From: a virus
Lineage: Duplodnaviria; Heunggongvirae; Uroviricota; Caudoviricetes
DNA: 9,855 bases
Strand: one strand, 5' to 3'
IMG/VR virus record: IMGVR_UViG_2617270976_000011
Span: 1-9,855 of that record
Position 1 is the first letter of the stretch; the number at the start of each line of letters is the position of its first letter. Positions 1 through 9,855 of this stretch are shown here, in pieces. Below the pieces are notes generated by a model. The model was not told where the DNA came from, did no database searches, and saw only the letters and a program-made list of their open reading frames with translations. Position numbers and translations under genes: made by a program.

Positions 1-996
1 TTATGGACGCATTATGGACATTCCTGACACCGGGTTAAGAGTCACAGCATCTTGTAAGAAATCCGGTGCAAAGTGTGCGTAGGTCATAGTTTGCTGAATG
101 TTAGAATGACCCAGGATGCGCTGCAATGTGATTATGTTACCTCCATTAATTATAAAATGTGTGGCAAATGTATGCCTCAAAACATGTACTGCTTGTCCGT
201 CAGGTAAATCGGGTTTTACTTCCCTGAGAGCGTTACGCACTTTGTAGTAACTGGCATTAAAAAGCCTGCCTGAATTTTTGGTCTTGATCCTTTTAATCAG
301 GTCCTGCGAAACGGGAATTGTCCTGCGCTTTCCGTTTTTAGTTTTCATAAACGTAACCATCTGGTTAATGATGTGTTCAGCTTTCAAATTAGACACTTCA
401 CTCCAGCGTCCACCAGTAGAAAGGCAGACTAGAGTTGCATTTAACTCATCACCATCAAGCATGGATAACAGCCGCGTAATCTCTTCACTGGACAAAAAAG
501 CCATTTCTGTAACAGCTTCACGTAACCGCTTAACCTCACGGAACGGGTTGTGAGAGTGGTATTCACCGGCGTCAATTAACTTGGTGAACATCCCGCTCAT
601 TATTGCCAGATGCCGATTTACGCTGGCTGGTTTTAGACCATCGTTCATCATTACAACTCGATAATCAGTTATCGTTTTCTTTGTTAACTGGTCAGCTCTG
701 GACACTCCCATTTCTGCAAATTTGGCGATTATTGTCGTCAAACGCCCCCGTTCAATATTTCCACGCTCATGTGATTTTCCGTGATATATCCACCATCTGC
801 CTAACAACTCTGTAAGAGTTCGGCGGTCGGCTGGCTTCTCCAGCCACTCTTTGTTGTGGTAGTTAACCAGCACATGACGTTCGAATGCTTGAGCTTCACC
901 TTTAGTTTTAAATTTCCGCCTGATACGTTTTCCATCTGCACCCTGCGGTCTGACGTCCACTTCATAACGACCATCATCGAGCTTTTTAATAGACAT
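1..996 (-). CDS. int: Phage tyrosine integrase, P2 family, complete (331 aa)
   Basis: Full-length minus-strand ORF. The C-terminal catalytic region has HxxR (HVLRHTFATHF) and a conserved Tyr (MTYAHFAPDF). The N-terminus MSIKKLDDGRYEV matches my recollection of P2 Int (337 aa). A GGAGGG Shine-Dalgarno lies just upstream of the ATG at 994-996. Confidence 0.9.
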   Translation of the reverse strand: MSIKKLDDGRYEVDVRPQGADGKRIRRKFKTKGEAQAFERHVLVNYHNKEWLEKPADRRTLTELLGRWWIYHGKSHERGNIERGRLTTIIAKFAEMGVSRADQLTKKTITDYRVVMMNDGLKPASVNRHLAIMSGMFTKLIDAGEYHSHNPFREVKRLREAVTEMAFLSSEEITRLLSMLDGDELNATLVCLSTGGRWSEVSNLKAEHIINQMVTFMKTKNGKRRTIPVSQDLIKRIKTKNSGRLFNASYYKVRNALREVKPDLPDGQAVHVLRHTFATHFIINGGNIITLQRILGHSNIQQTMTYAHFAPDFLQDAVTLNPVSGMSIMRP

Positions 997-1089
997 AAAG
1001 CCCTCCGATGACGCTGTTTACTTCTACTACTTGAAAATTAATGCAATTTTCTTTCGTACATTTACTGCACACATATGCTGAATAAATCG

Positions 1090-1401
1090 TCAGCCAGTCT
1101 TTTGGTCTGAGTGGTGCAAGGTTGTTGAGTCTTGCCCAATGTGCGCGAGCGCCGGGGCTATTTGTCCGCCAGCGGGATCAGTTTCATCAAACATGAACCA
1201 GTCACGGTACTTGCGAAATCTTTCTGGCTTGAAAAATTTCATACCTGCGTCAAAAGACATCTTTACTTTTCCCTGCTCATATCCAGCATAGGTGTTGTAG
1301 TTAATTCCAGTTAATTCAGCAACTTGCTTCCTTGTCATTCTTTCTGATTCCCGAATAAGTGCGAGTTTCTCTGCTTGAGATGTGATTTGTGTATTTGACA
1401 T
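1090..1401 (-). CDS. C: P2 C-type immunity repressor (about 103 aa)
   Basis: The track ORF (1090-1449) contains an internal Met at 1399-1401 that begins MSNTQITSQ, and its C-terminus GQIAPALAHIGQDSTTLHHSDQKTG matches my recollection of P2 C (99 aa). It lies immediately upstream of int on the same strand, as in P2. The 16 extra N-terminal codons in the track ORF are probably not translated. Confidence 0.8.
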   Translation of the reverse strand: MSNTQITSQAEKLALIRESERMTRKQVAELTGINYNTYAGYEQGKVKMSFDAGMKFFKPERFRKYRDWFMFDETDPAGGQIAPALAHIGQDSTTLHHSDQKTG

Positions 1402-1505
1402 GAATTGTCGTATCTCGTAATTTATGTTGTATGCGACACACCAGAACAACGCAGAGCGGCTTCAAATAGCTCTGGTTGAATGGCACCAAAGTTGAGGATA
1501 TCAAA
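1402..1505. promoter_or_regulatory. Immunity/early switch intergenic region between divergent C and cox starts (expected Pc/Pe promoters and repressor operators)
   Basis: 104-bp AT-rich spacer between the divergent start codons. It contains imperfect direct repeats TGTCGTAT (1406-1413) and TGTTGTAT (1425-1432). P2 C repressor is known to bind direct repeats; the specific sites here are not verified. Confidence 0.35.
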
Positions 1506-2690
1506 ATGAGTATTGGATCAGAAATGAATAACGATGTTGGAGAAAAAGTATCTGATCTCACAAAAAGTAAAAAATGTGACATCAAACTTGCAGCCGCACC
1601 GTCGGATTTGCTCTCGAAAGAGGGTTTTGCTCTTTACATCGGTAAGACGCCTCGCGCTGTTGCTGAAATGGCGAAAGCAGGCAAGTTACCAGCCTTTTAT
1701 ATGACGGACCCATTAAAGCCGGGCGGTCATGCTGAGTTATGGATTAACCGGGGCGGTGCTGCGGGGTATATCGCGAAATACATTTCAAAAAACATCGACG
1801 GCTATGCACTGGATGGTCAGCTCGATAACGACACCGGCAGGCCGCTGAAAGACACTGCCGCGGCTGTTACCGCATGGGCGTCAACGTGGCGCATTCCGCA
1901 ATTTAAAACGGTTGGCCTGCCGACAATGGGGGCTTACCGTGAACTACGCAAATTACCTCGCGGCGTCAGCATTGCTGATGAGTTTGACGAACGCGTCGAG
2001 GCTGCACGCGCTGCCGCAGACAGTGGCGATTTTGCGCTGTATATCAGCGCGCAGGGTGGGGCAAATGTCCCGCGCGATTGTCAGACTGTCAGGGTCGCCC
2101 GTAGTCCGTCGGATGAAGTTAACGAGTACGAGGAAGAAGTCGAGAGAGTGGTCGGCATTTACGCGCCGCATCTCGGCGCGCGTCATATTCATATCACCAG
2201 AACGACGGACTGGCGCATTGTTCCGAAAGTGCCGGTCGTTGAGCCTTTGACTTTAAAAAGCGGCATCGCCGCGCCTCGGAGTCCTGTCAATAACTGTGGA
2301 AAGCTTGCCGACGGTGGCGATCCAGTTATGACACCTACGCCGTCTGAGCATGCCGCAGCGGTGCTAAATCTTGTCGATGATGGGGTTATTGCATGGGATG
2401 ACCCCGAAGTTGTGACGGTGCTCAGGAGTGCATTAAAACACGGCGCGCCGCAGCAAAATCGACAGCAAAGAAGCGATGAGCCATTAAAATCGAATCAGAT
2501 AGCACCATCAGGGCGAATGACAAAAGCCGAGAGGGCTCAGATTCCGCGCATCCGCTTCGAACTGGCGCAGCAGGGTATCACGCCGCAGCGGTGGGAACTT
2601 CAGGCGCTGGCTCGTGGCGGAATAGTGGTTTATGGCGAAAAAAGATTTGTATACCCGATAGCGGACGAGTGGGTGAAGCATGAAGGGTGA
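1506..2690 (+). CDS. In-frame deletion fusion: Cox-like HTH N-terminus (about 80 aa) joined to the C-terminal ~310 aa of rolling-circle replication initiator gpA; probably a non-functional remnant
   Basis: The N-terminal segment FALYIGKTPRAVAEMAKAGKLPAFYMTDPLKPGGHAELWINR resembles P2 Cox. It runs directly into GYIAKYISKNIDGY, the paired-tyrosine (Y-x-x-x-Y) motif of phiX174/P2 A-type initiators. Gene B and the N-terminal ~450 aa of A are absent. A GAGGA Shine-Dalgarno precedes the ATG at 1506; the track ORF starts earlier at 1476. Confidence 0.7.
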   Translation: MSIGSEMNNDVGEKVSDLTKSKKCDIKLAAAPSDLLSKEGFALYIGKTPRAVAEMAKAGKLPAFYMTDPLKPGGHAELWINRGGAAGYIAKYISKNIDGYALDGQLDNDTGRPLKDTAAAVTAWASTWRIPQFKTVGLPTMGAYRELRKLPRGVSIADEFDERVEAARAAADSGDFALYISAQGGANVPRDCQTVRVARSPSDEVNEYEEEVERVVGIYAPHLGARHIHITRTTDWRIVPKVPVVEPLTLKSGIAAPRSPVNNCGKLADGGDPVMTPTPSEHAAAVLNLVDDGVIAWDDPEVVTVLRSALKHGAPQQNRQQRSDEPLKSNQIAPSGRMTKAERAQIPRIRFELAQQGITPQRWELQALARGGIVVYGEKRFVYPIADEWVKHEG

Positions 2691-2753
2691 TTTATATCCA
2701 TCTAAATCATGATGTTATGATGGCCGTGTGAGTTCTTTTCTGATTGGGGCTGC

Positions 2754-2928
2754 GTTCGACGGCTTGAAATGTTGTAAATGCTCATAATCTGGTTTAAAGT
2801 GTTTTTATGCCAACGACTAGGAGCATCTCCAGTCATAAATGTTGGCCTCTACAGGCCTTTATATAGTGTTGCTCTTGTACTGCCTTCTCTTTCGAGAGAA
2901 GGTATGTACAAGAAGTAAAGCCTGCGAA
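2754..2928 (+). ncRNA. Candidate retron msr-msd non-coding RNA (boundaries approximate)
   Basis: Non-coding leader directly upstream of, and co-oriented with, the RT gene. Candidate a1 TTCGACGGCTT (2754-2764) is complementary to candidate a2 AAGCCTGCGAA (2918-2928) at 9 of 11 positions, with a G immediately 3' of a1. A strong hairpin at 2876-2910 sits just 5' of a2, where an msd stem would be. Not confirmed by folding or covariance. Confidence 0.3.
2876..2910 (+). repeat. Inverted-repeat hairpin: 8-bp perfect core CCTTCTCT/AGAGAAGG with a TTCG (UUCG) tetraloop, extendable to about 15 pairs with one G-T wobble and a 1-nt bulge
   Basis: Read directly: 2883-2890 CCTTCTCT, loop 2891-2894 TTCG, 2895-2902 AGAGAAGG; outer arms TGTAC (2876-2880) and GTACA (2906-2910). 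Confidence 0.8.
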
Positions 2929-3016
2929 GGGAGGGTGTCTGGGGTGAGGAAAGACTGAGAGTTAAAGCATTCATCTTAGAATCCATTCAACTCAAAAAAC
3001 AAAAGCTCAGCCAACG

Positions 3017-4006
3017 ATGAAACCCCTTAGTCTCGAAAAAGCCTTCAATATTGCATTCTTCGAAAAAGATTCCTTTCAAAACTTTCTTTCGTTTGAACCA
3101 TTTCAACAAACTAAATTTATAACCTTTGATGAAAGGTTAATTGCTGAGCCCACTTCTAAACTAAAAGAGTATCACAAATTCATAAATGAATTTGTTCTTT
3201 CATACTTGAAAGTAAATAAGGATGTTGTGTTTTCGTATAGAAAAGGAAGCAGCACTTATGATGCAGTAAAACTTCACGCCTGTAGTAAGATATTCTTCAA
3301 TACTGATATTAAAAGCTTTTTCCCATCGATAACTCGTGAATATGCACGATCAGTTTTAGTTGATAACTTATCGAACGTTCCCATTTCCGATTTAAATATA
3401 CACTTGGATAAAATTTTAGATTATATTATTATCGATAATTCGTTGCCTGTAGGGTTCCCGACATCACCAGCTTTCAGCAATGCATGTTTATATGACTTTG
3501 ATGTTGAGATGCAGCAATATTGTATTAACCATGAATATATATTCACACGCTATTCAGATGATATTATTATTTCCTCTGAAAATGATGAGGGCTTTGAGAA
3601 TATTCATTCTGTAGTAAGTGACCTGCTGGGTGAGTTTGGGAAGGGACATTTCAAACTAAACTCAGCAAAAACTAAATTGATTAAAAAAGGCAGTAAGATT
3701 AAGCTGCTGGGGATGGTTATTTTACCGTCTCAGATAGTCTCTGTTGATATTAAAATAAAAAGAAAGCTTGAGCATTTGATTCATTTTTATGTAACGGATA
3801 AAGATAAATTTATAGATTCTATAATAAAAGATCCTAAGGTTAAAACTAGCGGATTGAATGATAGTGAGATCTTGGAAAAGGGCGTTAATACAGTTTCTGG
3901 TCTTTTGAATCATATAAACACAATTGATAAGAGTTATCTCGATAAGCTAAAGAGAAAATACGGAAATACGATTGTCGATATGCTTTTTTACAAGAATGTA
4001 AATTAA
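3017..4006 (+). CDS. Reverse transcriptase, retron-type (329 aa)
   Basis: RT motifs are in canonical order: SSTYDAVKLHA (NAxxH-like box, residues 78-88), DIKSFFPSI (motif A, 97-105), LPVGFPTSPAFSN (QG-P-SP box, 143-155), YSDD catalytic box (179-182, nt 3551-3562), LLGMVI (230-235). Small size, no maturase or endonuclease domain, a non-coding structured leader upstream and an effector gene downstream all fit a retron. AT-rich coding sequence. Confidence 0.85.
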   Translation: MKPLSLEKAFNIAFFEKDSFQNFLSFEPFQQTKFITFDERLIAEPTSKLKEYHKFINEFVLSYLKVNKDVVFSYRKGSSTYDAVKLHACSKIFFNTDIKSFFPSITREYARSVLVDNLSNVPISDLNIHLDKILDYIIIDNSLPVGFPTSPAFSNACLYDFDVEMQQYCINHEYIFTRYSDDIIISSENDEGFENIHSVVSDLLGEFGKGHFKLNSAKTKLIKKGSKIKLLGMVILPSQIVSVDIKIKRKLEHLIHFYVTDKDKFIDSIIKDPKVKTSGLNDSEILEKGVNTVSGLLNHINTIDKSYLDKLKRKYGNTIVDMLFYKNVN

Positions 4007-4007
4007 A

Positions 4008-5360
4008 ATGAAAATAAATATTGAGATCTCGAAAATCCAGCATGTTGAACATATGTCATTTGCTATTGATCTTTCTGAAAATAAACTGACTTGCATTGTA
4101 GGAAAGAACGGTGCTGGAAAGACAACGCTAATCAAAGCAATTAAAAATTTACAATCAGCAGATACATTCATAAAGACATCTTCTAGATATATATTCAATC
4201 CTGACAGTAGTATAGTATATAATATTAATGATCAAGATATAGTATATGTCTATGATGAGAATTTGAAGGTAATAGATACTAAGCAAATAATTCCAGCAGA
4301 TATAAAATCCAATCTTTATGTCGAGTTGCCCATTCCTCATGGAATGAGGTTCAATAACTTCCCAACACTTAGTAAAATTGATACTGAACTTAGAAAAAGT
4401 ATTGCGTTTGAAAGCTATAGCGTTCCCGAGGATTTGATAAATATACTCAATGAGGTATATCAGTCTTCTTCTTACAATAATCTTAAAGCATTTTCTGTAA
4501 AAAATGAAATTTTCTATTTCAGATTGAATGAGAACGGAACATACATAAGGGAGGATTACTTTAGCTCGGGTGAGTATTTTATTTTGAATTTATTTAGAAT
4601 GATTGAGCTCAAAAGAAAATTCATTGTCATAGATGAGATAGATATATCACTAGACTCTTCGGCGCAAGTCCATCTTATAGCAGTGCTAAGGAAATATTGT
4701 CAGAGACACTCGGTGAATATTGTATTCACAACACATTCACTTGCTTTAATGCAAACGCTGAATGATGATGAATTGTACTATATGTGCGAAGGTGATGCTG
4801 GAACTACAATTACAAATCGATCATATAATTATATAAAAAGTACGCTTTTTGGATTTAAAGGATGGGATAAGTACATTCTTACTGAAGATGAAGTTCTGCA
4901 AAATTTCTTAGAATATATAATTAATGCTCCTGGGAATGATTACTTCTACGAATATAAAATAATATATGTTGGTGGAGGAACTAATGTCATTGATTTAATG
5001 CGTCGTAATGAGAGAGAGAGCTTTCTCACGACTCAACAGAATGTGATCTCAGTGTTAGACGGAGATCAATTAGGTCAAAGGCATGCTCGAGGTGAAAATA
5101 TTTTATGCATACCTTTCCAAAGCGTTGAGAAGGATTTCTATCAAGCATACGGCCAAGATGAATCGATCCCGAGAGTTACAACTAGAGGTAACGATAAACT
5201 TGATAAGCAAGTTTATCGAGGGGTAGTGAAAACCTATGACAACGGCTGGGATGAAACTAGGATTTTTGAATACCTTGAGAGGTTAAAGCCTGATGAATGT
5301 GAGGCTTTCAGGCAAAAAATTAGAGCATTTCTCCAAAGAAATATTTCGGCAGAGGGTTGA
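4008..5360 (+). CDS. OLD-family ABC-type ATPase with C-terminal TOPRIM-like nuclease domain (450 aa); probable retron effector
   Basis: Walker A GKNGAGKTT (residues 32-40, nt 4101-4127), ABC-signature-like FSSGE (185-189), Walker B FIVIDEID (205-212), H-loop TTHS (241-244). The C-terminal half has TOPRIM-like acidic residues: ILTEDEV (Glu ~293) and VLDGDQ (DxD, 351-353). The ATG lies 1 nt after the RT stop (TAA 4004-4006, ATG 4008-4010). Confidence 0.8.
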   Translation: MKINIEISKIQHVEHMSFAIDLSENKLTCIVGKNGAGKTTLIKAIKNLQSADTFIKTSSRYIFNPDSSIVYNINDQDIVYVYDENLKVIDTKQIIPADIKSNLYVELPIPHGMRFNNFPTLSKIDTELRKSIAFESYSVPEDLINILNEVYQSSSYNNLKAFSVKNEIFYFRLNENGTYIREDYFSSGEYFILNLFRMIELKRKFIVIDEIDISLDSSAQVHLIAVLRKYCQRHSVNIVFTTHSLALMQTLNDDELYYMCEGDAGTTITNRSYNYIKSTLFGFKGWDKYILTEDEVLQNFLEYIINAPGNDYFYEYKIIYVGGGTNVIDLMRRNERESFLTTQQNVISVLDGDQLGQRHARGENILCIPFQSVEKDFYQAYGQDESIPRVTTRGNDKLDKQVYRGVVKTYDNGWDETRIFEYLERLKPDECEAFRQKIRAFLQRNISAEG

Positions 5361-5502
5361 ATATAAGCTTCGGGATCTCATGCCTCTCTATCTGCATGAA
5401 ATTGCATTTGATAATTCCTATTTTTCTCGTGAACTGTGTCACGTTAGGCGCAGCTCAGGGCTCATAATGCATCTGCATTAAAACCGCCCCACGAAGCGGG
5501 CG

Positions 5503-5521
5503 GGCGAGGCGGGGAAAGCAC
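5503..5521. other. Candidate P2-type cos cohesive-end sequence GGCGAGGCGGGGAAAGCAC
   Basis: The 19-mer matches my recollection of the P2 19-nt cohesive end. It sits in a GC-rich non-coding stretch between the cargo cassette and head/tail remnants, which is where cos lies in a P2 prophage (between old and Q). Identification is from memory, not a search. Confidence 0.5.
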
Positions 5522-5663
5522 TGCGCGCTGGCGGTGGTGCTGATTTTATTTTTTCAGCGTCTGAGCGCGTCGTGAAGGCGTTTACTTGGCCTGCTGGGGC
5601 GTTGGTGTGTCTGCGGGATTTTTTGTGCGGTGATGAGCGTGTGAGGGCGTGATGACAGGGTAT

Positions 5664-5685
5664 AAAAAAGCCGCCCGCAGGCGGC
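5664..5685 (-). terminator. Intrinsic terminator-like hairpin for leftward transcription (GCCGCC-TGCG-GGCGGC followed by TTTTTT on the minus strand)
   Basis: Plus strand shows AAAAAA (5664-5669), GCCGCC (5670-5675), CGCA loop, GGCGGC (5680-5685). This lies immediately downstream of the minus-strand ORF stop at 5691-5693. Confidence 0.55.
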
Positions 5686-5690
5686 GATGT

Positions 5691-6209
5691 TCAGCCGTTG
5701 TCAGTGTCCAGTGAGTAGTTTTTAAAGCGGATGACCTCCTGACCGAGCCAGCCGTTTATCTCGCGGATCCTGTCCTGTAGCGGGATAAGCTCATTGCGGA
5801 CAAAGACCTTTGCCACTTTCTCAATATCACCCAGCGACCCGACGTTCTCCGGCTTGCCTCCCATCAACTGAAAGGGGATGCGGTGCGCGTCCAGCAGGTC
5901 AGCGGCGCTGGCTTTTTTGATATTAAAAAAATCGTCCTTCGTTGCGACTTCACTGAGCGGGATAATTTTAATGCCGTCGGCTTTCCCCTGCGGGGCATAG
6001 AGAAACAGATTTTTAAAGTTGTTGCGGCCTTTCGACTTGACCATGTTTTCGCGAATACGGGATGCGTGACCGTTCAGCTCGCGCAGTGATTTTTGTGTTT
6101 CCCGGATATCCCCCGACAGCGACCTGCTCGCTGTACGGATGGATTTAAACGGGCGGGATGCCTGGTCAACAGCCCTGAGCAATACCTGTAATTTTACATT
6201 GTTACTCAT
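5691..6209 (-). CDS. Chimeric ORF (172 aa): N-terminal ~60 aa consistent with the start of tape-measure gene T, fused to a ~110-aa portal-like (gpQ-like) C-terminal segment
   Basis: Its ATG (6207-6209) overlaps the stop of the upstream E' frame (TAA 6203-6205) as ATGAGTAA, the position expected for the start of T after E/E'. The C-terminal part (AHRIPFQLMGG ... NELIPLQDRIREINGWL) resembles a conserved C-terminal portal motif. Its own frame is closed by a TGA 18 codons upstream of the ATG. Confidence 0.45.
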   Translation of the reverse strand: MSNNVKLQVLLRAVDQASRPFKSIRTASRSLSGDIRETQKSLRELNGHASRIRENMVKSKGRNNFKNLFLYAPQGKADGIKIIPLSEVATKDDFFNIKKASAADLLDAHRIPFQLMGGKPENVGSLGDIEKVAKVFVRNELIPLQDRIREINGWLGQEVIRFKNYSLDTDNG

Positions 6210-6491
6210 TCGTGTTTCCGCTTCGCCGGAGCGCCTTTTCGCGCCATGTGATGAGTTCGGTCAGGCTCATGGGATACAGTTCTGATGGCGGCCAGTGAAA
6301 TATCACAGCCACATCCGCCATCAGGTCATCGACCGAGAGATTTTTCGGAAACGTCACTGCACCGAGTTCGGCGACAAAAAACCGACCACCTTACCGGCCA
6401 GCGCCACAAGGTCAGGCAGTTCCAGCGCGGCGACTTCCTGCTCGGTCAGAACAGGTAAAGCTGCTGATAGCGACCGGAGGCCGTGGATTTT
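6203..6491 (-). pseudogene. 5'-truncated remnant of tail assembly chaperone genes E and E+E' (programmed -1 frameshift pair)
   Basis: Minus-strand frame 0 reads ...LTEQEVAALELPDLVALAGKVVGFLSPNSVQ-stop, with no start codon and an in-frame stop at 6492-6494. The -1 frame continues from the slippery site as FFVAELGAVTFPKNLSVDDLMADVAVIFHWPPSELYPMSLTELITWREKALRRSGNTNE-stop. Seven codons after the slip in frame 0 and a 58-codon extension fit the 91-aa and 142-aa sizes I recall for P2 E and E+E'. Confidence 0.5.
6375..6381 (-). other. -1 programmed ribosomal frameshift slippery heptamer T_TTT_TTG
   Basis: Plus strand is CAAAAAA at 6375-6381, i.e. TTTTTTG on the minus strand, positioned in frame as X_XXY_YYZ seven codons before the frame-0 stop. 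I recall the same heptamer as the P2 E/E' frameshift site. Confidence 0.5.
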
Positions 6492-6526
6492 TCACCGCGA
6501 CGGTTAAACACCTTCGCCGGTCGACC

Positions 6527-9256
6527 ATGTGCGAACGGGTGGTCACTGTAGTCGGTGAAGATTTCCGGCTTTCCCAGCAGGATTTCAGCCGCTTTGTGCT
6601 GGATTTTCTGGTGTTCGGTAATGCGTTTCTGGAAAAGCGTTACAGCACCACCGGTAAGGTCATCAGACTGGAAACCTCACCGGCAAAATATACCCGCCGT
6701 GGTGTGGAGGAGGATGTTTACTGGTGGGTGCCGTCCTTCAACGAGCCGACAGCCTTCGCGCCCGGCTCCGTGTTTCACCTGCTGGAGCCGGATATTAATC
6801 AGGAGCTGTACGGCCTGCCGGAATATCTCAGCGCCCTTAACTCTGCCTGGCTGAATGAGTCAGCCACGCTGTTCCGCCGCAAGTATTACGAAAACGGCGC
6901 ACATGCCGGATACATCATGTACGTCACTGATGCCGTGCAGGATCGCAACGATATCGAAATGCTTGAGGGATTCCGCAAGACCAGTGCACAGCTTGCCGTG
7001 ACTGGTCATGCACTTGAAAAGGCTCGGCAGGAAGCCGAAGCCCTTGCCACACAGTTTAAAAACACCGAACGTCCGACCCGTGCTCAGGCGAAAGTGCTGG
7101 AATCCGCAAAGCGTGCGGCGGAGGACTTACAGGCGAAATATAACCGCCTGACGGATTCCGTTAAACGCCAGCAGCGGGAACTGGCCGCTGTGGGAATTAA
7201 TACCCGCAATCTTGCACATGATGAGCAGGGACTGAAAAACCGTATCAGTGAAACCACCGCACAGCTTAACCGTCAGCGTGATGCGCTGGCGCGTGTCAGT
7301 GCGCAACAGGCAAAACTTAACGCAGTCAAACAGCGTTATCAGGCCGGAAAGGAACTGGCCGGAAATATGGCCTCAGTAGGCGCTGCCGGTGTGGGGATTG
7401 CGGCGGCGGGAACGATGGCCGGAGTTAAATTGCTGATGCCCGGTTATGAGTTTGCGCAGAAAAACTCAGAATTGCAGGCCGTGCTCGGAGTGGCAAAAGA
7501 CTCCGCCGAAATGACCGCACTCCGCAAGCAGGCGCGCCAGCTCGGCGACAATACCGCAGCCTCGGCAGATGATGCAGCCGGTGCACAGATAATCATTGCG
7601 AAAGCGGGTGGAGATGCTGCGGCTATTCAGGCAGCAACGCCGGTCACACTGAATATGGCACTGGCAAACCAGCGGTCGATGGAAGAAAACGCGCAATTGT
7701 TGCTGGGGACTAAGGCATCCTTTCAACTGTCAAATGATGATGTCAGCCATGTGGGCGACGTGTTGTCGGCAACGATGAATAAGTCGGCGGCTGATTTTCA
7801 GGGACTCAGTGATGCACTGACTTACCTCGGCCCGGTTGCGAGGACGGCAGGTGTAAGTATTGAGCAGGCAGCGGCCATGACCGGTGTGCTGCATGACAAT
7901 AACATCAGGGGGTCAATGGCGGGTACGGGTAGCAGTGCCGTTGTCACCCGATTACAGGCACCGACTGGAAAAGCATGGGATGCACTCAAAGAGCTTGGCG
8001 TTAAAACCTCGGACAAAAAGGGAAATATGCGTCCGTTGTTCACCATTCTGAAAGAGATTCAGGCCAGCTTTGATAAGCATAAGCTGGGAACGTCTCAGAA
8101 GGGGGAATACCTTAAAACCATTTTTGGTGAGGAAGCCCTGAAATCAGCGAACGTTTTACTGGCAGCGGCAGCAAGCGGAAAACTGGATACGCTGACCGCC
8201 ACGCTGAAAGCCTCGGACGGTAAAACGGAAGAGCTGGTTAAAATCATGCAGGATAACCTCGGCGGTGACTTTAAGGAGTTTCAGTCCGCTTATGAGGCGG
8301 TGGGGACTGACCTGTTTGACCAGCAGGAAGGCGCACTGCGTAAGCTCACTCAGACGGCCACAAAGTATGTGTTAAAACTCGACGGCTGGATCCAGAAAAA
8401 CAAATCACTGGCGTCAACCATCGGCCTCATTGTCGGTGGCGCGCTGGCGCTTATTGGCATCATCGGTGCCATTGGTCTTGTCGCCTGGCCGGTTATCACC
8501 GGCATCAATGCCATTATCGCGGCAGCAGGCGCAATGGGGGCAATCTTCACGACGGTTAGCAGTGCTGTTATGACGGCCATCGGGGCGATTAGCTGGCCGG
8601 TTGTGGCCGTGGTGGCCGCCATTGTCGCCGGGGCGTTGCTTATCCGTAAATACTGGGAGCCTGTCAGCGCATTCTTTGGCGGTGTGGTGGAAGGGCTGAA
8701 AGCGGCATTTGCGCCGGTGGGGGAACTGTTCACGCCACTGAAGCCGGTGTTTGACTGGCTGGGTGAAAAGTTACAGGCCGTGTGGCAGTGGTTTAAAAAC
8801 CTGATTGCCCCGGTCAAAGCCACCCAGGACACCCTGAACCGTTGCCGTGACACGGGCGTTATGTTCGGGCAGGCACTGGCTGACGCGCTGATGCTGCCGC
8901 TTAATGCGTTCAACAAACTGCGCAGCGGTATTGACTGGGTACTGGAAAAACTCGGTGTTATCAACAAAGAGTCAGACACACTTGACCAGACCGCCGCAAG
9001 GACTCATGCCGCCACGTATGGCACCGGTGGTTATATTCCGGCGACCAGCTCTTATGCTGGCTATCAGGCTTATCAGCCGGTCACGGCACCGGCTGGCCGC
9101 TCTTATGTGGACCAGAGTAAAAACGAATATCACATCAACCTGACGGGCGGTACTGCGCCGGGGACACAGCTCGACCGCCAGTTACAGGATGCGCTCGAAA
9201 AATACGAGCGGGATAAACGTGCGCGCGCCCGTGCCAGCATGATGCATGACGGTTAA
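6527..9256 (+). CDS. Chimeric long ORF (909 aa): N-terminal ~150-aa portal-like segment fused in frame to ~745 aa of phage tail tape-measure protein (gpT-like)
   Basis: From about residue 160 onward the protein has a long coiled-coil region, a conserved tape-measure core (ASFQLSNDDVSHVGDVLSATMNKSAADFQGLSDALTYLGPVARTAGVSIEQAAAMTGVLHDNN) and Gly/Ala/Ile-rich hydrophobic segments. The first ~150 residues (e.g. FRRKYYENGAHAGYIMYVTDAVQDRNDIEMLEG) are unlike tape measure and look portal-like. No Shine-Dalgarno precedes the ATG, and the frame is open back to 6299 without a start. Confidence 0.75.
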   Translation: MCERVVTVVGEDFRLSQQDFSRFVLDFLVFGNAFLEKRYSTTGKVIRLETSPAKYTRRGVEEDVYWWVPSFNEPTAFAPGSVFHLLEPDINQELYGLPEYLSALNSAWLNESATLFRRKYYENGAHAGYIMYVTDAVQDRNDIEMLEGFRKTSAQLAVTGHALEKARQEAEALATQFKNTERPTRAQAKVLESAKRAAEDLQAKYNRLTDSVKRQQRELAAVGINTRNLAHDEQGLKNRISETTAQLNRQRDALARVSAQQAKLNAVKQRYQAGKELAGNMASVGAAGVGIAAAGTMAGVKLLMPGYEFAQKNSELQAVLGVAKDSAEMTALRKQARQLGDNTAASADDAAGAQIIIAKAGGDAAAIQAATPVTLNMALANQRSMEENAQLLLGTKASFQLSNDDVSHVGDVLSATMNKSAADFQGLSDALTYLGPVARTAGVSIEQAAAMTGVLHDNNIRGSMAGTGSSAVVTRLQAPTGKAWDALKELGVKTSDKKGNMRPLFTILKEIQASFDKHKLGTSQKGEYLKTIFGEEALKSANVLLAAAASGKLDTLTATLKASDGKTEELVKIMQDNLGGDFKEFQSAYEAVGTDLFDQQEGALRKLTQTATKYVLKLDGWIQKNKSLASTIGLIVGGALALIGIIGAIGLVAWPVITGINAIIAAAGAMGAIFTTVSSAVMTAIGAISWPVVAVVAAIVAGALLIRKYWEPVSAFFGGVVEGLKAAFAPVGELFTPLKPVFDWLGEKLQAVWQWFKNLIAPVKATQDTLNRCRDTGVMFGQALADALMLPLNAFNKLRSGIDWVLEKLGVINKESDTLDQTAARTHAATYGTGGYIPATSSYAGYQAYQPVTAPAGRSYVDQSKNEYHINLTGGTAPGTQLDRQLQDALEKYERDKRARARASMMHDG

Positions 9257-9270
9257 GGAGGTGACGAAAA

Positions 9271-9555
9271 ATGATGCTCGCGTTAGGTATGTTTGTTTTT
9301 ATGCGCCAGACGCTGCCACACCAGACCATGCAGCGTGAATCAGATTATCGCTGGCCGTCAAATTCCCGTACCGGTCGTGCAGATATTTACACGGAAACAC
9401 CGGTCAGAGTGTCAGGCTTTAAGCGCGTCATAGACGAGCAGGACTGGACAATCACTAAGGTGACACATTTTCTGAATAATAGCGGCTTCACGACGTCCTT
9501 AGAGCTTGAGGTCAGGCTTTCTGATGTGGAGTACGAAACAGAAGATTATGAGTGA
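9271..9555 (+). CDS. Truncated tail protein remnant (94 aa): gpU-like N-terminus, possibly fused to a gpD-like C-terminus
   Basis: A strong AAGGAGGTGA Shine-Dalgarno (9255-9264) precedes the ATG, 15 nt after the T stop, which is where U sits in the P2 FETUD operon. At 94 aa it is far shorter than U (about 159 aa) or D (about 387 aa), so an internal deletion is likely. The U/D fusion point is inferred, not demonstrated. Confidence 0.45.
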   Translation: MMLALGMFVFMRQTLPHQTMQRESDYRWPSNSRTGRADIYTETPVRVSGFKRVIDEQDWTITKVTHFLNNSGFTTSLELEVRLSDVEYETEDYE

Positions 9556-9636
9556 TGTATTTTGTTTATCTGTTTGTTTTATAAGGATAAATTAACTAAA
9601 ATGGCAACATCAACAAAACCGGAAGAGGTGCTCGCG

Positions 9637-9855
9637 ATGTTTCATTGTCCTTTATGCCAGCATGCCGCACATGCGCGTACAAGCCGCTATATCACTGACA
9701 CGACAAAAGAGCGTTATCACCAGTGTCAGAACGTGAATTGCAGCGCCACGTTCATAACTTATGAGTCGGTACAGCGATACATCGTGAAGCCGGGAGAAGT
9801 CCACGCCGTAAGGCCGCACCCGTTGCCGTCAGGGCAGCAAATTATGTGGATGTAA
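9637..9855 (+). CDS. ogr: Ogr late-gene transcriptional activator, C4 zinc-finger (72 aa)
   Basis: Sequence MFHCPLCQHAAHARTSRYITDTTKERYHQCQNVNCSATFITYESVQRYIVKPGEVHAVRPHPLPSGQQIMWM matches my recollection of P2 Ogr, including the CxxC...CxxxxC zinc-finger cysteines. The track ORF (from 9562) carries 25 extra N-terminal codons that are probably not translated; 9601 is an alternative start. Confidence 0.85.
   Translation: MFHCPLCQHAAHARTSRYITDTTKERYHQCQNVNCSATFITYESVQRYIVKPGEVHAVRPHPLPSGQQIMWM

Follow-up and report, generated by a model that had tools for sequence, protein, structure and literature searches.

Which genes fill the stretch between replication gene A and the cos site in a P2-like prophage in which orf91, tin and old of phage P2 are replaced, and how did they come to lie there? 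The question is raised by a conspicuously AT-rich island in a stretch of 9,855 nucleotides (nt) of caudoviral DNA (IMG/VR record IMGVR_UViG_2617270976_000011, positions 1 to 9,855), the whole of which is referred to here as the window. An initial annotation, made from the letters alone, had placed the island at 2691-5502 and had interpreted it as a reverse transcriptase (RT)/ATPase module that was acquired horizontally as a unit. Judged by GC content, the map against P2 and a survey of related loci, the observation was correct and its interpretation essentially right. According to our analysis, the island is very probably the cargo of the cos-adjacent slot between genes A and Q of a P2-like prophage, and consists of a complete type I-B1 retron arranged as one rightward operon. 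This operon would comprise a non-coding RNA (ncRNA) transcribed from its own promoter-like site, a clade-1 retron RT and an ABC-ATPase/Toprim nuclease of the OLD family, which correspond to the following features:

2772-2800, plus strand: promoter-like site, with the -35 element TTGTAA at 2772-2777, a spacer of 17 nt and the -10 element TAAAGT at 2795-2800
2807-2924, plus strand: core of the retron ncRNA, from nhmmer, covariation and folding
3017-4006, plus strand: retron RT of 329 amino acids (aa), from PADLOC (RT_I-B) and Pfam (RVT_1)
4008-5360, plus strand: ABC-ATPase/Toprim effector of the OLD family, Class 3B, 450 aa, from PADLOC, Pfam and fold comparison

Type I-B1 is characterized by a clade-1 RT together with an ABC-ATPase/Toprim protein carrying EDxxL and DxD motifs (Mestre et al., 2020; PMC7736814). 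A review of OLD proteins describes the OLD gene of type I-B1 as lying downstream of the RT gene (Class 3B), and that of type I-B2, or Retron-Eco8, as lying upstream (Class 3A; PMC10568477). The gene order expected for type I-B1 is the one found in the window, where ncRNA, RT gene and effector gene follow each other and the open reading frames (ORFs) of the two proteins, both on the plus strand, are separated by one base. The RT matches the PADLOC model RT_I-B at 6.5e-110 over residues 3-328 of its 329, the 24 PADLOC models ranking next are without exception retron RTs, and the Pfam match to RVT_1 has an E-value of 8e-19. Among its 16 sequence matches in the PDB, 15 are retron RTs and the weakest is a Cas6-RT-Cas1 fusion; the closest solved structures are the RTs of the type I-A retrons Ec78 and Ec83 (E 1e-19 to 3e-22). 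The catalytic motif Y179-S-D-D182 is present and conserved among the 75 relatives in which motifs were checked, and a catalogued E. coli protein matches the RT at 100% identity.

The product of the downstream gene matches the PADLOC model ATPase-Toprim_I-B at 1.6e-179 over residues 1-443, with Pfam matches to AAA_21 and AAA_15. It shows the composition of a type I-B1 effector, namely an N-terminal ABC ATPase with Walker A at G32-T39 (GKNGAGKT), SSGE at 186-189, Walker B at D209-E210 (VIDEID) and the H-loop histidine H243, followed by the Toprim motifs E293-D-E-V-L297 (EDEVL) and D351-G-D353 (DGD). All of these catalytic motifs are invariant across 54-64 relatives. For an AlphaFold2 model of the protein (mean pLDDT 85.9), the best PDB folds were Thermus scotoductus OLD (6p74; 3e-13), Gabija GajA and the type I-A protein PtuA. 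The putative Toprim domain is assigned from the PADLOC model, the conserved motifs and this fold match. On its sequence features, the cassette is a complete and uninterrupted type I-B1 retron of OLD Class 3B, and not Retron-Eco8.

The RNA component was located with an nhmmer profile. Of 80 related gamma- and betaproteobacterial loci, 60 have the element on the strand of the RT gene and upstream of it. In the window, it can be divided into the following parts:

2809-2846, plus strand: P1 hairpin, with outer stem GCCAAC/GUUGGC and inner stem GACU-A-GGAG/CUCC-AGUC
2847-2868, plus strand: conserved linker CUCUAC..GCCUUUA
2852-2856 and 2920-2924, plus strand: helix of five base pairs flanking P3, CAGGC/GCCUG
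2869-2918, plus strand: P3, a long variable hairpin and the presumed msd template

The element is conserved above the level of the proteins, in that the RTs of E. coli and Photorhabdus are 57% identical while the approximately 110 nt upstream align nearly without gaps. Compensatory changes affect 9 of the 13 base pairs of P1 (for example GCCAAC/GUUGGC versus GCUAGC/GUUAGC). In P3 the pairing is kept while sequence and length vary, the result always being a hairpin of 40-75 nt. A short conserved hairpin and a long variable hairpin next to an RT gene thus make up an msr-msd-like structure. The RNA of the window, at 119 nt, folds with -48.8 kcal/mol (z = -6.4), and none of 200 shuffled sequences folded as well. 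The tested ncRNA of the type I-B1 retron Mestre-308 is another member of this RNA family.

The promoter-like site ahead of the ncRNA is kept in the relatives from Erwinia and Kluyvera. A -35/-10 pair scoring at least 8/12 within 50 nt upstream of P1 was present in 46 of 61 loci, compared with 4 of 122 control windows, and in 40 of the 46 loci with such a pair the -10 element ends 4-8 nt before P1; in the window it ends six bases ahead of the ncRNA. A generic promoter scan gave no excess over shuffled sequences and left the conserved site below threshold, and the support for a promoter was taken from positional conservation across loci in its place. We infer from this conservation that 2772-2800 acts as a promoter. 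Because its position is fixed, the transcript most likely starts at P1.

The position of the retron in the prophage follows from blastn against P2 (NC_001895). Window 1744-2672 corresponds to gene A (P2 29358-30286), 5474-5521 to the right end of P2 with cosR, and 5503-6055 to cosL and the 3' part of Q, which bears out the P2 counterparts that had been noted on either side of the island. Between gene A and cos, the island replaces orf91-tin-old of P2 (30287-33545), a region to which it has no similarity by blastn. Its edges are formed by the following segments:

2284-2690, plus strand: 3' end of replication gene A in a cassette-linked allele, from identity profiles
5361-5391, plus strand: cargo tail 3' of the ATPase stop, the last stretch without similarity to prophages with other cargo
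5392-5502, no strand assigned: cos-proximal backbone equivalent to the right end of P2, from alignment with six other-cargo prophages and P2
5503-5521, no strand assigned: cos, the 19-nt cohesive-end sequence GGCGAGGCGGGGAAAGCAC, equal to P2 1-19 and 33575-33593

This slot has been recognized before. The hotspot of P2-like phages corresponds to the old/tin locus of P2 (Odegrip, 2006; Rousset et al., 2022), and for the gpA-gpQ hotspot adjoining cos, 1,650 arrangements were reported in 18,150 loci (Rousset et al., 2022). We found the cassette in 10 of 5426 complete E. coli genomes, about 2150 of which have the flanks, and always between A and the portal gene. The carriers are intact P2-like prophages at two different attachment (att) sites, with different integrases. 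In other P2-like prophages the same slot holds unrelated cargo, of which five kinds were seen: an ABC-three-component system; ASCH, Dcm, HEPN and DUF262 genes; DUF3850 and DUF2971 genes; a single AAA ATPase; and three hypothetical proteins. The island therefore has the properties of gpA-gpQ hotspot cargo, as it lies between A and the portal gene Q, adjoins cos and is swapped elsewhere for unrelated genes. Table S5A of Rousset et al. (2022) lists "RVT_1 + AAA_21, WP_024248662 + WP_024248661". In RefSeq, WP_024248662 is the RT of strain A30 and WP_024248661 the ATPase of AHM21C2872I, both of which carry the cassette. Locus and cassette have thus both been described already.

An ATPase-Toprim homologue follows the RT gene in 77 of the 80 related loci, and the remaining three lie on contigs that break off too soon. 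Outside E. coli, the neighbors of I-B1 cassettes are mixed and include a two-component system, an enolase-family gene, a resolvase and an IS3 transposase, and no mobility gene is consistently linked to the cassettes there. The initial annotation had reasoned that its interpretation would fall if the same cassette turned up at unrelated positions with mobility genes of its own; non-P2 contexts do occur in other genera, and they share no consistent mobility gene. Acquisition of RT and ATPase as a unit at the orf91/tin/old position is supported by the missing similarity to the P2 region that it replaces, by the rarity of the cassette in E. coli, by the adjacency of the two genes among the relatives, by the unrelated cargoes and by the published hotspot. 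The acquired unit is tripartite and consists of the promoter together with the ncRNA, of the RT and of the effector.

Further variable sites were observed in retron-bearing prophages. One of them (L095, 9514-11617; GCA_054732435.1) carries two extra genes, for proteins of 360 aa and 229 aa, the former weakly matching DUF8426; they lie between cos and the portal gene and mark a second variable slot, across cos from the retron. The prophage of E. coli A30 (L002, 24397-26299) contains a Pycsar effector and cyclase between an S-like gene and V, at the position of P2 orf30, which makes this site a second defence slot of the same phage.

In 300-nt sliding windows, the GC content is 0.28-0.40 from about 2850 to 5400 and 0.51-0.60 on both sides. 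The island (2691-5391) has 34.1% GC, with 31.8% in the RT gene and 33.8% in the ATPase gene, compared with 55.9% in the part of gene A at 1744-2690 and 54.3% in the right flank (5503-9855). The discontinuity is present in codon usage as well, as the GC content at third codon positions is 0.31 for the RT and 0.30 for the ATPase versus 0.55 for A, 0.67 for the Q fragment and 0.59 for T. A two-breakpoint maximum-likelihood segmentation of 1500-9300 placed the shifts at 2949 and 5425, with a log-likelihood ratio of 157.7 versus a highest value of 27.3 among 200 block-shuffles. The GC dip, which the initial annotation had judged by eye, is therefore far above chance. Its proposed coordinates hold to within about 100-250 nt: the steep fall begins only past the ncRNA at about 2950, and the backbone is back at 5392-5474, before cos. 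The stretch of 326 nt behind the A stop (2691-3016) has an intermediate GC content of 41.7% because a structured RNA is encoded there. The description of the flanks as GC-balanced applies to the A part and the right flank (54-56%) but not to the int and C genes.

The low GC content is shared by the cargoes of this slot, with 35.1% for orf91-tin-old of P2 and 32-42% for the five other cargoes versus 53-56% for A genes. It is a trait of this cargo in every prophage examined and not specific to the retron cassette. Among the related loci, I-B1 cassettes are GC-poorer than their own flanks in 71 of 73, with a mean difference of 14 points. The int and C genes at the left end of the window (1-1449) are likewise GC-poor (43-44%); they reach 66-70% identity to P2 in short stretches only, and this region differs among the retron-bearing prophages of the two att sites. 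It forms a separate exchangeable integration/immunity module.

The boundaries of the inherited block differ from those of the compositional island. The core of the replication origin (ori) is conserved at about 2250-2305, and the nick site of P2 maps to 2278. The core around this position is conserved in all P2-like A genes compared, with divergence beginning about 28 nt downstream. Compared with the window, prophages whose cargo differs show 93-100% identity at 1804-2283 but 63-85% between about 2306 and the A stop, and O157 TR01, which carries other cargo, is identical to the window up to 2389. In the divergent A15 prophage, which carries the retron, identity is 67-87% left of about 2400 and 92-100% right of it. 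Matches of at least 93% identity to the 3' allele of A in the window (2290-2700) are confined to the ten retron carriers, and outside them the best match reaches 76.5%; the retron and roughly the last 130 codons of A therefore form a single inherited block. The identity profiles thus place the left mosaic boundary inside A, at about 2306-2400, and the composition changes only after the A stop. On the right side, the ATPase stop is followed by 31 nt of cargo, which closes at about 5391, and similarity to prophages with other cargo is regained at 5393, 5447, 5466/7 or 5474, the point varying among them. The initial annotation had taken the A stop and cos as the bounds of the island and had suggested alignment with P2 and related prophages to find the breakpoints. 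The composition does shift 3' of the A stop, but the inherited block starts inside A and the backbone resumes about 110 bp before cos.

The cos-proximal backbone contains two TGCAT-type motifs, CTGCATGAAATTGCAT (5392-5407) and AATGCATCTGCATTAAAACCGC (5466-5487), with a variable spacer between them, in all prophages examined including P2. They lie approximately 35-110 nt left of cos and may be packaging/terminase-binding or promoter elements. Neither direct nor inverted repeats were found flanking the island, and PADLOC and Pfam revealed no recombinase within it, in agreement with what had been seen in the letters. We posit that the cassette encodes no mobility function itself and that its transfer among P2-like phages relies on homologous recombination within the closest stretches of conserved backbone. 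To the left these would be gene A as far as ori, ori included, and to the right Q, cos and the cos-proximal motifs; the diverged 3'-terminal 400 bp or so of A would therefore hitch-hike. The idea that all left junctions coincide at the ori nick was rejected, since the crossovers vary (about 2306, 2389 and about 2400), and homologous recombination was preferred. A survey of breakpoints from megablast end-points over 1612 genomes was uninformative because the alignments run through the part that is 70% identical. A weaker second reading is suggested by the two breaks that the phage itself makes, the ori nick (2278) and cos (5503), which might promote the exchange of cargo; ori and cos bracket the co-inherited block, which is suggestive, but the crossover points are scattered. 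The inclusion of the 3' end of A in the block, starting just after ori, bears on how hotspot cargo is exchanged.

Several points weigh against the reading of the island as a complete type I-B1 retron exchanged in this way. In the RT, N155-A-C-L-Y stands where NAXXH is expected and V-S294-G295 stands in place of VTG, both also in the family consensus, and Pfam detected no Toprim domain in the effector. A canonical a1/a2 closing stem gave no signal when real partners were compared with mismatched ones in three pairings, namely the 70 nt upstream of P1 with the 70 nt downstream of P3, the linker with the downstream 70 nt, and the linker with the 14 nt after P3 (p = 0.26, 0.57 and 0.67), and no branching G was assignable in the window ncRNA. 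In a retron census, both tested I-B1 retrons (Mestre-308 and Mestre-314) were recorded as "0 by PAGE" (polyacrylamide gel electrophoresis) for RT-DNA. The searchable literature yielded neither a demonstrated defence phenotype nor a defence assay of any I-B1 retron, expression and activity in the remnant prophage are predictions, and the route of recombination is read from the mosaic boundaries. The two replaced motifs, the lack of statistical support for the a1/a2 stem and the two systems without a band on PAGE would also fit another RT-based defence system of Abi- or DRT-like kind that makes no multicopy single-stranded DNA (msDNA), with the upstream RNA being a mere leader or regulatory element. 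So would the Rfam scan of the whole window, which at E<=1 returned two chance matches and no retron RNA family. We consider such a system improbable, as the best PADLOC and PDB matches are retron RTs, with DRT/Abi models not among the best PADLOC matches, and as a conserved recognition hairpin is followed by a long, hypervariable and covarying one, as in msr-msd. Moreover, the I-B1 family was placed in RT clade 1 together with Ec78, Ec83 and Ec73 (Mestre et al., 2020), and the complementary DNA (cDNA) of Mestre-308 was sequenced from exactly this RNA.

The encoded RT and the sharp compositional limits could also point to a self-mobile retroelement inserted downstream of A, for example a group II intron or a retron integrating by means of its own RT. 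This is hardly credible, given that the RT of 329 aa has no maturase, endonuclease or integrase domain in Pfam, that the Rfam scan found no group II intron RNA, and that there are neither terminal repeats nor a target-site duplication. The boundaries are those at which backbone homology is lost next to unrelated cargoes too, and the linked A allele shows recombination inside A. We attach equally little weight to local mutation or selection on ancestral P2 genes as the source of the low GC content, a position effect that could be suggested by the AT-richness of every slot cargo, that of P2 included. Neither orf91 nor tin nor old resembles the island in sequence, and a direct homology of the effector to P2 Old was rejected, as the weak similarity (E 0.004) covers the P-loop only. 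Relatives in Pseudomonas, Burkholderia, Photorhabdus and other genera are, in addition, GC-poorer than their flanks outside any P2 context. A type I-B1 retron acquired as cargo of the A-Q slot is therefore the reading that we prefer.

By analogy with types I-A and I-B2, this retron is predicted to function in anti-phage defence. The RT would copy part of the ncRNA into DNA, as described for Eco8 and for Ec78/Ec83 (PMC12887533, PMC13402713, PMC12819146), and the complex of RT, RNA and DNA would keep the ATPase-nuclease inactive until a phage product, SSB in the case of Eco8, disturbs it. The freed Toprim nuclease would then cut nucleic acid and the infected cell would stop growing, and this abortive infection might shield the kin of the lysogen from other phages.

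Membership among the retrons is solid for the proteins and the RNA family, and does not cover the classical priming architecture. In the retron census, Mestre-308 gave a sequenced cDNA of 116 nt, which begins at the A-run just 3' of P3, covers everything from P3 to P1, linker included, and ends at the base of P1, and Mestre-314, with an ncRNA construct that lacked P1, gave no RT-DNA. It is possible, if rather doubtful, that type I-B1 retrons including the window copy use a non-canonical ncRNA architecture which starts at P1 and has no a1/a2 stem. If this were true, priming and termination would depart from the classical scheme for branched msDNA, and a copy of the conserved P1 would be part of the DNA product. 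Such a non-canonical product might explain the scoring of I-B1 as a non-producer by PAGE.

Other candidate elements of the RNA were rejected. Copies of CUCC(A/G) downstream of P3, as a2 partners of GGAG, were in excess (23 observed versus 9.8 expected), but the excess stems from three loci, one of which is a (CTCCAG)n microsatellite. The hairpin GGCCU-CUAC-AGGCC (2844-2857), considered as an msr stem or terminator, is unconserved in relatives and overlaps P1, and a direct repeat of GCCAACGA at 2809 and 3010 is unconserved in Erwinia and Kluyvera and is attributed to chance. The microsatellite was observed in Pseudomonas azerbaijanoccidentalis (L020, at about 3700-3800), where it is located 3' of the ncRNA hairpin and ahead of the RT gene, and its repeat unit equals the 3' strand of P1. 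The corresponding spacer in the window (2925-2965) is purine-rich in the E. coli/Erwinia/Kluyvera clade (GAAGGGAGGGUGUCUGGGGUGAGGAAAG) and pyrimidine-rich, with CUCC-type tracts, in most other I-B1 loci. The purine-rich form is able to pair with the pyrimidine-rich 5' strand of P3.

The window as a whole (1-9855) is a decayed P2-like prophage of 9.9 kb, situated between pflA and pflB in assembly GCA_000704325.1. It contains an in-frame cox::A fusion, a U::D fusion and leftover fragments of E' and of the endolysin gene K. Q (P2 550/551) and T (P2 20004/20005) are the end points of a reciprocal inversion, from which the chimeric ORFs 5691-6209 (minus strand) and 6527-9256 (plus strand) have resulted. 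The junctions of the remnant lie at 1744-1750, 6054/6055, 6443-6449, 6567-6574, 6963/6964 and 9369-9375, with overlaps of 2-8 nt, and the rearranged order was found in no complete E. coli genome. Within this decayed prophage, the retron cassette and cos are intact, so that a defence cassette outlasts the genes for replication, lysis and the virion. An intact prophage shares 99.8-99.9% identity with window 1-6055; the decay is therefore recent, and no selection can be inferred from the survival of the cassette.

The value of the locus lies chiefly in its correct annotation, as it represents a textbook case of the cos-adjacent defence hotspot of P2-like phages, occupied by a catalogued I-B1 retron. 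The I-B1 subtype is experimentally uncharacterised, and a natural E. coli copy that is compact and whose promoter, ncRNA and gene bounds are defined makes a convenient test object. The remaining interest concerns the architecture of the I-B1 RNA.

Compared with known systems, the retron of the window is a member of the group formed by the I-B1 retrons Mestre-308 (Atopomonas/Pseudomonas hussainii) and Mestre-314 (B. pseudomallei), with no difference of substance. The shared ncRNA family has the form ATGYCAGYGACTAGGAGYATCTCCAGTC ... long hairpin ... AGTAA, and the A. hussainii proteins are 45% (RT) and 50% (effector) identical to those of the window. Most of the sampled I-B1 relatives lie outside P2 contexts, whereas the window copy resides in a P2-like prophage. 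Retron-Eco8, which likewise combines a retron RT with an OLD-family ATPase/Toprim effector, is probably the best mechanistic model. Its gene order is the opposite, with the OLD gene upstream of ncRNA and RT in Eco8 and downstream in the window. The Eco8 RT belongs to clade 3 and matches the clade-1 RT of the window at 4e-8, while the Eco8 effector gave no sequence match to the window effector at E<=0.001, and its Toprim motif is EGxxE in place of the EDxxL of the window type, here EDEVL. The Eco8 holocomplex cuts double-stranded DNA and is triggered by phage SSB (PMC12887533, PMC13402713).

The type I-A retrons Ec78 and Ec83 (Septu-like, PtuAB) resemble the window retron in their clade-1 RT and in an ABC ATPase of the same fold (Foldseek 2e-11). 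They differ in that their nuclease is a separate HNH protein, whereas the window effector has a fused Toprim domain, and in that their ncRNA has 8-nt terminal inverted repeats and four stem-loops, which were not found in the window. Ec67 in the retronphage phiR67 is a retron of a P2-like E. coli prophage with a Toprim effector; it belongs to type I-C, in which the RT is fused to Toprim and an ATPase is lacking. The RT of Ec67 matches that of the window at 2.6e-11. The old/tin cargo of P2 itself occupies the same position and is the same kind of AT-rich, exchangeable anti-phage cargo, and P2 Old is also an ABC-ATPase/Toprim protein, although only distantly related to the effector of the window.

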